Position numbers and translations under genes: made by a program | Assembly (NCBI GenBank): GCA_947476335.1 | Contig: CANJQH010000002.1 | Span: 22,768 to 86,767 of the forward strand | Length of the DNA stretch: 64,000 nucleotides | Direction: 5' to 3' | Source of the DNA: Anaerolineae bacterium | GTDB lineage: Bacteria > Chloroflexota > Anaerolineae > J036 > Brachytrichaceae | In this document: piece by piece, positions 15,807 to 15,985 of the stretch | Numbering within the stretch: position 1 is the stretch's first letter | How the letters are laid out: every line of letters begins with the position of its first letter | Notes under the pieces: model-generated | Seen by the model: the letters and a program-made list of their open reading frames with translations, nothing else | What the model was told of the DNA's origin: nothing | Databases searched by the model: none

Positions 15807-15833
15807 AGAGTACACCCTCTACTCTTTATTTTT
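15798..15833 (+). terminator. rho-independent terminator of the TerC gene
   Basis: AAAGAGTAGAG-agtacacc-CTCTACTCTTT followed by ATTTTT. The stem includes the TAG stop codon. Confidence 0.7.
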
Positions 15834-15945
15834 GTAACTACTCAGGCCCAAATTAGTATTTCCCGCGAAACACACTATTCTCTCTCCCGAAGGGGGAGAG
15901 AATAGTGTGTTTCGCGTTGGAAAAATGGCTAGCCTGAGTAGTTAC
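15834..15945 (+). mobile_element. MITE-A copy 3
   Basis: 112 bp, 3 nt different from copy 5. Perfect 8-bp direct repeats TTATTTTT at 15826-15833 and 15946-15953. Confidence 0.9.
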
Positions 15946-15985
15946 TTATTTTTACTCTTTGCTCTTTATTCTTTGCTCTTTAACT

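Follow-up and report, generated by a model that had tools for sequence, protein, structure and literature searches.

Within the 64,000-nucleotide stretch of DNA analyzed here (the window), a gene for a TerC-family membrane protein (Pfam PF03741, E = 1.2e-50) occupies positions 14820..15806 of the forward strand. Its 328-aa product begins at a GTG at 14820, as in public assemblies, and 18 public contigs have a gene call with an identical product; an in-frame TTG lies upstream of this start at 14781. The stop codon, TAG at 15804-15806, falls within the left arm of a terminator-like hairpin (15798..15827, + strand) with an 11-bp stem and an 8-nt loop: left arm AAAGAGTAGAG at 15798-15808, loop AGTACACC at 15809-15816, and right arm CTCTACTCTTT at 15817-15827. 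ATTTTT follows straight after the right arm (15828-15833), and at the very next base begins a 112-bp copy of a repeat that we call MITE-A (15834..15945, +), which is without coding capacity. This copy is bounded by perfect 14-bp terminal inverted repeats (TIRs), GTAACTACTCAGGC on the left (15834..15847) and GCCTGAGTAGTTAC on the right (15932..15945), and encloses an inner, near-perfect hairpin of 53 nt, CGCGAAAC...GTTTCGCG (15864..15916). The octamer TTATTTTT stands on both sides of the element, once at 15826..15833, where it is the T-tract of the TerC hairpin, and once at 15946..15953, now 3' of MITE-A's own hairpin. The duplication is exactly 8 bp, since the ninth bases differ (T versus C). 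Our re-reading of the hairpin, the ATTTTT, the start of the element, and both octamers agrees to the base with an earlier, sequence-only reading of this DNA, and its claim that the insertion duplicated the terminator T-tract stands as well, the second octamer now lying behind the element's large hairpin.

Beyond the right-hand octamer lies a heptamer-like tract, ACTCTTT GCTCTTT ATTCTTT GCT (15954..15977, +), followed by a second and unrelated MITE of 181 bp with 22-bp TIRs (GGGTGCATTCGCCAAAAGGGGC), which, including its own target-site duplications, fills 15978..16174 (+). The element proper runs from 15986 to 16166, between copies of the octamer CTTTAACT at 15978-15985 and 16167-16174. Its inner hairpin, TCGAAACGCGC...GCGCGTTTCGA, has the same design as that of MITE-A despite the unrelated 22-bp TIRs. 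A convergent gene of 155 aa without a Pfam match closes the interval (16180..16647, -). The spacer between this gene and TerC is 373 nt today and would be 64 nt with both MITEs removed. Elsewhere in the window, a diverged MITE-A copy (13764-13880) starts 12 nt upstream of the 5' end of an FMN riboswitch (Rfam RF00050, 96 bits; 13627-13751, - strand), so the promoter of that operon must lie within or beyond the MITE.

The TerC hairpin has the geometry of an intrinsic terminator, a stable stem-loop followed by AUUUUU, with UUU in the stem too. It folds at -14 kcal/mol by itself and at -21 kcal/mol once its flanks are included; a simple terminator scanner overlooked it, since pairing can continue from the stem into the T-run. 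On this geometry we infer that the hairpin probably works as a terminator. A different origin is possible, if somewhat unlikely: the hairpin could be an accidental pair of inverted heptamer blocks at a lineage-specific junction, with no terminator function, and the MITE would then merely have hit AT-rich DNA of the heptamer type. The AT-rich stem does consist of GAGTAAA/GAGTAGA-type heptamer blocks and their complement, with G-C pairs at only 4 of 11 positions, and (AAAGAGT)n and other period-7 arrays are both common in this genome and favored by MITE-A. In the species nearest to this one (83-86% aa identity in TerC), moreover, TerC overlaps a methyltransferase gene and the hairpin is absent. 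Against an accidental hairpin stand the textbook arrangement, in which a stop codon within the stem is followed by a run of 8 T in 9 positions between convergent genes, and a fold far more stable than that of shuffled sequences (z = -6.4). Because TerC overlaps the methyltransferase gene in the nearest other species, its downstream junction is specific to this lineage, which places a rearrangement junction at the 3' end of the gene. The end of the TerC reading frame, from its last four codons through the stop, itself lies in heptamer-type sequence (window positions 15790-15833, compared with L001 3930-3970 and with L208/L209).

The MITE-A copy at the TerC site differs from the family consensus by three point changes and an inverted loop, and folds at -73 kcal/mol (z = -14). 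The same left junction occurs in 12 independent metagenome or MAG assemblies, and the same right junction is reached by 5; this agreement rules out an assembly artefact at the junctions. Alleles of the site were gathered by exact-protein look-up of TerC and of the convergent 155-aa gene, which gave ~20 contigs from several assembly series and one NCBI MAG (99.7% nucleotide identity). Every contig that reaches the site carries MITE-A at the same base, the rest being broken inside the MITEs, and five same-species contigs extend into the right-hand TTATTTTT and the heptamer tract. The loop state in the NCBI MAG contig (L207) is opposite to that in the window, for which assembly path-switching is a possible cause.

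The sequence-only reading had proposed a search for an empty allele, the same TerC terminator with a single octamer, in a related strain. We found none in same-species assemblies or in relatives: all same-species contigs that reach the site are filled. In a TerC search of genome contigs, the nearest relative (83% aa identity) has a different downstream gene and offers no orthologous empty site; a DNA search of four congeners (G001-G004) yielded alignments at 72-78% identity or none at all, with the downstream gene absent; and the next TerC cluster (86% aa identity), in which TerC overlaps the methyltransferase gene, has no empty site either. The TerC insertion is thus old enough to have become fixed in every sampled strain of the species.

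To what extent the duplication at TerC is representative can be read from the family as a whole. The surveyed assembly (G000) is that of an uncultured member of the Thermoflexales (Chloroflexota), 3.42 Mb in 125 contigs, with 60% G+C and 92.7% completeness. It holds 578 forward and 566 reverse matches to the MITE-A TIR and 463 clean TIR pairs, 281 of which are exactly 112 bp long; by BLAST there are 596 loci, amounting to 1.6% of the genome, and the length classes span 61 to 204 bp. MITE-A has all the attributes of a MITE: it is short (under ~300 bp) and non-coding, carries TIRs, makes a duplication of fixed length, and is dispersed in many copies. Among 266 copies the TIRs are more than 90% conserved at each position. 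Copies average 94.9% identity to the consensus, and 59 reach at least 98%, figures that indicate a fairly recent burst.

The octamers that flank the 463 pairs are identical in 241 and differ by one mismatch in 78. Duplications of any other length considered (k = 5, 6, 7, 9, and 10) yield 0-2 identical pairs, control octamers shifted by 1-16 bp yield 0-1, and permuting the right flanks among copies yields a mean of 1.6 and a maximum of 5. Eight-base-pair duplications are therefore general in the family (241 of 463, against 0-5 in controls), and the chance-level agreement that the sequence-only reading had named as its own counter-evidence did not appear. That the two TTATTTTT octamers at TerC match by chance in AT-rich intergenic DNA, with no transposition there, we consider exceedingly improbable. 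Both the AT-rich, repetitive setting of the site, with its heptamer blocks and T-runs, and the 24% of MITE-A copies without matching flanks would suit a chance match; against it weigh the enrichment at k = 8 only, the near-absence of identical pairs in the shifted and permuted controls, and a base-exact empty paralogue of another MITE-A copy (see below). The insertion at TerC is a real transposition event, although one of ordinary transposon biology.

At least three mismatches separate the flanks of 109 of the 463 copies, a group to which four of the window's six intact copies belong. The flanks of copies without a match form chains that cross-match one another, a pattern that fits mis-assembly and recombination alike; a search for inversions between copies as the source found just one reciprocal pair. 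The unmatched flanks plausibly arise from assembly mis-joins or from recombination between copies. Chains of this kind in the surveyed assembly (C2:70113, C4:3086, and C40:22230) suggest mis-joins or recombination, and two public contigs, L187 (ERZ27263687) and L198 (ERZ27280162), switch to unrelated flanks inside MITEs and are chimeric joins.

Several structural variants of MITE-A merit description in their own right. The 4-nt tip of the inner hairpin (in the window, for example, at 15885-15892) reads CTTC in 124 and CGAA in 116 of 266 oriented copies. These two states are reverse complements of each other and are unlinked to any other variant position, a pattern that suggests frequent in situ inversion, or flip-flop, of the loop of a perfect palindrome. 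The 204-bp class (15 copies, for example, C1:36718-36922 and C4:89195-89399) contains a nested element of ~92 bp with CTAAGT...ACTTAG ends at varying internal positions; another MITE family thus targets MITE-A. The 61-bp and 82-83-bp classes are without all or part of the inner hairpin. An Rfam search of the MITEs returned only sub-threshold matches to generic hairpins (miRNA precursors).

A base-exact empty site exists for another copy of the family. On contig C5 (28447-28534), a small TIR element runs uninterrupted through a single CGATGCCG; in its filled partner on C54, MITE-A (14310-14422) lies between two copies of CGATGCCG within the same small TIR element. The host element belongs to a third small family with ends GGGAGTGACTAAACTC, ~90-100 bp long and with ~28 end matches (C5:28447-28534, C54:14245-14480, and C80:13222-13325). 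Comparison of the surveyed assembly with its congener G001 (~85% nucleotide identity) reveals that the presence and absence of MITE-A differ in both directions: G001 has a copy with the duplication CTATCTTC at a spot where the surveyed assembly has none, and the window copy at 47347-47477 sits where the corresponding G001 genes abut. This synteny yields no base-exact empty sites because intergenic DNA at ~85% identity is too diverged. MITE-A is confined to this species and G001, which has ~350 candidate loci; it is absent from G002, G003, and 36 more distant relatives, and G004 has one fragment.

Perfect MITE-A duplications are 62% A+T, compared with 45% in non-MITE intergenic DNA, and follow a palindromic consensus, S-A-W-W-W-W-T-S, within AT-rich periodic flanks of ~6 bp per side. 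Duplications that recur are independent insertions into heptamer microsatellites at a fixed register, the octamers GAAATCTG/CAGATTTC having been hit 22 times and GAGTAAAG 3 times. Tandem Repeats Finder (TRF) detects 500 period-7 arrays in 3.4 Mb, of which 84 are (GAAATCT)n and 15 are (AAAGAGT)n; heptamer tracts in the window lie at 15954-15977, 45400-45425, and 51470-51500, and such arrays are hot spots for MITE-A insertion. A rough gene caller places 97% of copies between genes, compared with a non-coding share of 16%. Tandem, convergent, and divergent spacers are each occupied about as often as their numbers would predict, and orientation relative to genes is unbiased (91 versus 107).

Does the position at TerC reflect a specific preference of MITE-A for intrinsic terminators, that is, for a hairpin followed by a T-tract? 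We judge this most unlikely. A terminator-like motif is overlapped by 42 of 318 reconstructed empty sites, and MITE-A sites lie at a median of 45 nt from the closest 3' end of a gene, as such targeting would predict. Random AT-matched intergenic octamers, however, overlap such motifs similarly (103 of 957; 13% for the empty sites versus 11% for the controls, odds ratio 1.26, Fisher p = 0.26), the spacer types are occupied roughly in proportion, and the hot spots that stand out most are heptamer microsatellites rather than terminators. With no enrichment over AT-matched controls, terminator targeting as a property of MITE-A was rejected. The TerC site was hit, rather, because MITE-A prefers AT-rich, weakly palindromic octamers with AT-rich flanks; this octamer and heptamer rule explains why T-tracts are struck in a GC-rich genome. 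In a genome of 60% G+C, such AT-rich sites are terminator T-tracts and heptamer microsatellites, and the inverted heptamers of the TerC hairpin are just the kind of sequence that MITE-A favors.

The GTAA terminus together with an 8-bp duplication led us to suspect the IS66 family as the source of MITE-A. A PF03050 profile search and tblastn detected no DDE_Tnp_IS66 gene or remnant in G000 or G001, an absence that in G000 must be read against a MAG of 92.7% completeness and the frequent failure of repeated insertion sequences to assemble or bin. Inspection of TIR pairs 0.4-6 kb apart in G000 likewise gave no convincing autonomous insertion sequence. The congener G002, by contrast with both, carries on contig C104 a 1478-bp insertion sequence with a single 473-aa ORF (DUF6444, zf-IS66, and DDE_Tnp_IS66), whose ends GTAACTGCTCAGCCCAAA and GTATCTGCTCAGCCCAAA align with the MITE-A end GTAACTACTCAGGCCCAAA. 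Among 80 metagenomic relatives of this transposase, 16 have recognizable ends, nearly all of the form GTAACT(A/G)CTCAG(G/C)C. These ISBst12-like insertion sequences carry the ends GTAACTACTCAGGC or GTAACTACTCAGCC; in two of them, L115 and L125, the ends equal those of MITE-A at 14 of 14 positions, and L125 is flanked by the 8-bp duplication CAAAAAGT, although most of the metagenomic insertion-sequence copies examined lack matching 8-bp flanks. Of 50 genomes in the same GTDB family, 11 also carry PF03050, and many of those loci show the same end motif. In all, matching 5'-GTAA termini occur on the DDE_Tnp_IS66 elements of L104, L115, L125, L141, and L212-L225, and on ISDge4.

ISfinder and Han et al. 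(2001) reportedly give a GTAA terminus as a hallmark of IS66, and ISBst12 itself is said to have been described by Egelseer et al. in 2000. A published relative is ISDge4 of Deinococcus geothermalis, a member of the ISBst12 group with TIRs GTGACTACTCAGCA and GTAACTGCTCAGCA and one transposase of 449 aa (PMC12898284). It has been seen to transpose, leaving an 8-bp direct repeat, and is described as a copy-and-paste element (PMC12898284). The ends of MITE-A are identical to the published ISDge4 ends at 12-13 of 14 positions. Judged by its matching ends and its 8-bp duplication, MITE-A is in all probability a MITE of the ISBst12 group of the IS66 family. Mobilization by another family that makes 8-bp duplications (ISL3, IS1595, IS256, IS6, or hAT-like) would accord with the failure to find an IS66-family transposase in G000 or G001 and with the fact that IS66 is not alone in making 8-bp duplications. 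We nevertheless regard it as very improbable, since DDE_Tnp_IS66-encoding elements from a congener, from the same bacterial family, and from metagenomes have exactly the 14-bp ends of MITE-A and are nearly identical to it over the first 18-20 bp; the similarity to ISDge4 and the GTAA terminus, the hallmark mentioned above, argue in the same direction. The absence of a resident transposase bears on the present mobility of MITE-A, not on its ISBst12 ancestry.

Very probably, then, a non-autonomous, ISBst12-derived MITE-A was inserted into TTATTTTT just 3' of the TerC hairpin by a transposase acting in trans. Under this scenario the enzyme would belong to the ISBst12 group, the single-ORF branch of the IS66 family; it would have cut the two strands of the octamer TTATTTTT with a stagger of 8 bp, and repair of the gaps would have left the octamer duplicated. 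Since no IS66-family transposase was found in G000 or G001, the identity of the mobilizing enzyme, as well as its chemistry, is inferred from relatives. The sequence-only reading had spoken of DDE-type cut-and-paste insertion with an 8-bp duplication. Its DDE-type insertion and its duplication are borne out, the ends matching those of DDE_Tnp_IS66 elements; its cut-and-paste does not follow, as copy-and-paste leaves the same scar. The duplication shows staggered cleavage of the DDE-transposase kind, which is the same for either pathway, and ~600 copies imply a net replicative gain.

What the insertion did to the TerC transcript can be considered in the same light. Since the insertion left the hairpin and its UUUAUUUUU whole, TerC termination, if it occurs there, should proceed as before. 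The MITE-A hairpin (-73 kcal/mol) and the second UUAUUUUU would make up another terminator-like structure, confined to the + strand; across the genome, a T-rich run follows the element on one strand in 64 of 463 copies. A bolder proposal is that the MITE-A hairpin and the duplicated T-tract constitute a second, stronger terminator or insulator between the convergent genes, and that the inner hairpin is generally a selected module in the family. We find this doubtful. The structure of the inner hairpin is conserved across the family, the unrelated 181-bp MITE beside it shares that hairpin, and its loop orientations stand at ~50:50. Were it true, part of a 600-copy swarm would have been domesticated as transcript-end or stability elements.

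The TerC site itself documents a clean insertion scar and reveals no new mechanism. The wider yield is an abundant repeat (~600 copies, 1.6% of a 3.4-Mb genome) tied to the little-studied ISBst12 branch of IS66, together with a target-site rule that comprises AT-rich, weakly palindromic octamers and heptamer microsatellites. Because MITE-A elements break and mis-join metagenome assemblies, knowledge of the family should also help the curation of MAGs in this lineage. A search of the accessible literature found no description of MITEs derived from ISBst12 or IS66.

MITE-A can be placed beside three known systems. It shares with the ISBst12 group (ISDge4 and ISBst12) the termini GTAACT(A/G)CTCAG.. 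and the 8-bp target duplications, but differs from those elements in being 112 bp long, in lacking an ORF, in reaching ~600 copies, and in having no autonomous partner in the assembly; its long internal hairpin is unrelated to the interior of ISBst12-group insertion sequences. The two hairpins at the TerC site, the gene's own with UUUAUUUUU and that of MITE-A with UUAUUUUU, resemble intrinsic terminators in their predicted succession of stem and U-tract, yet depart from canonical ones in that the TerC stem is AT-rich and the MITE-A stem far longer. With the foldback MITEs of other bacteria (Correia/NEMIS of Neisseria, ERIC, RUP, and Nezha), some of which are reported to influence transcript ends, MITE-A has in common its small size, non-coding sequence, TIRs, target duplications, numerous intergenic copies, and a strong tendency to form hairpins. 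Correia duplicates TA, however, and RUP is IS630-like, whereas MITE-A combines an 8-bp duplication with IS66-type ends.
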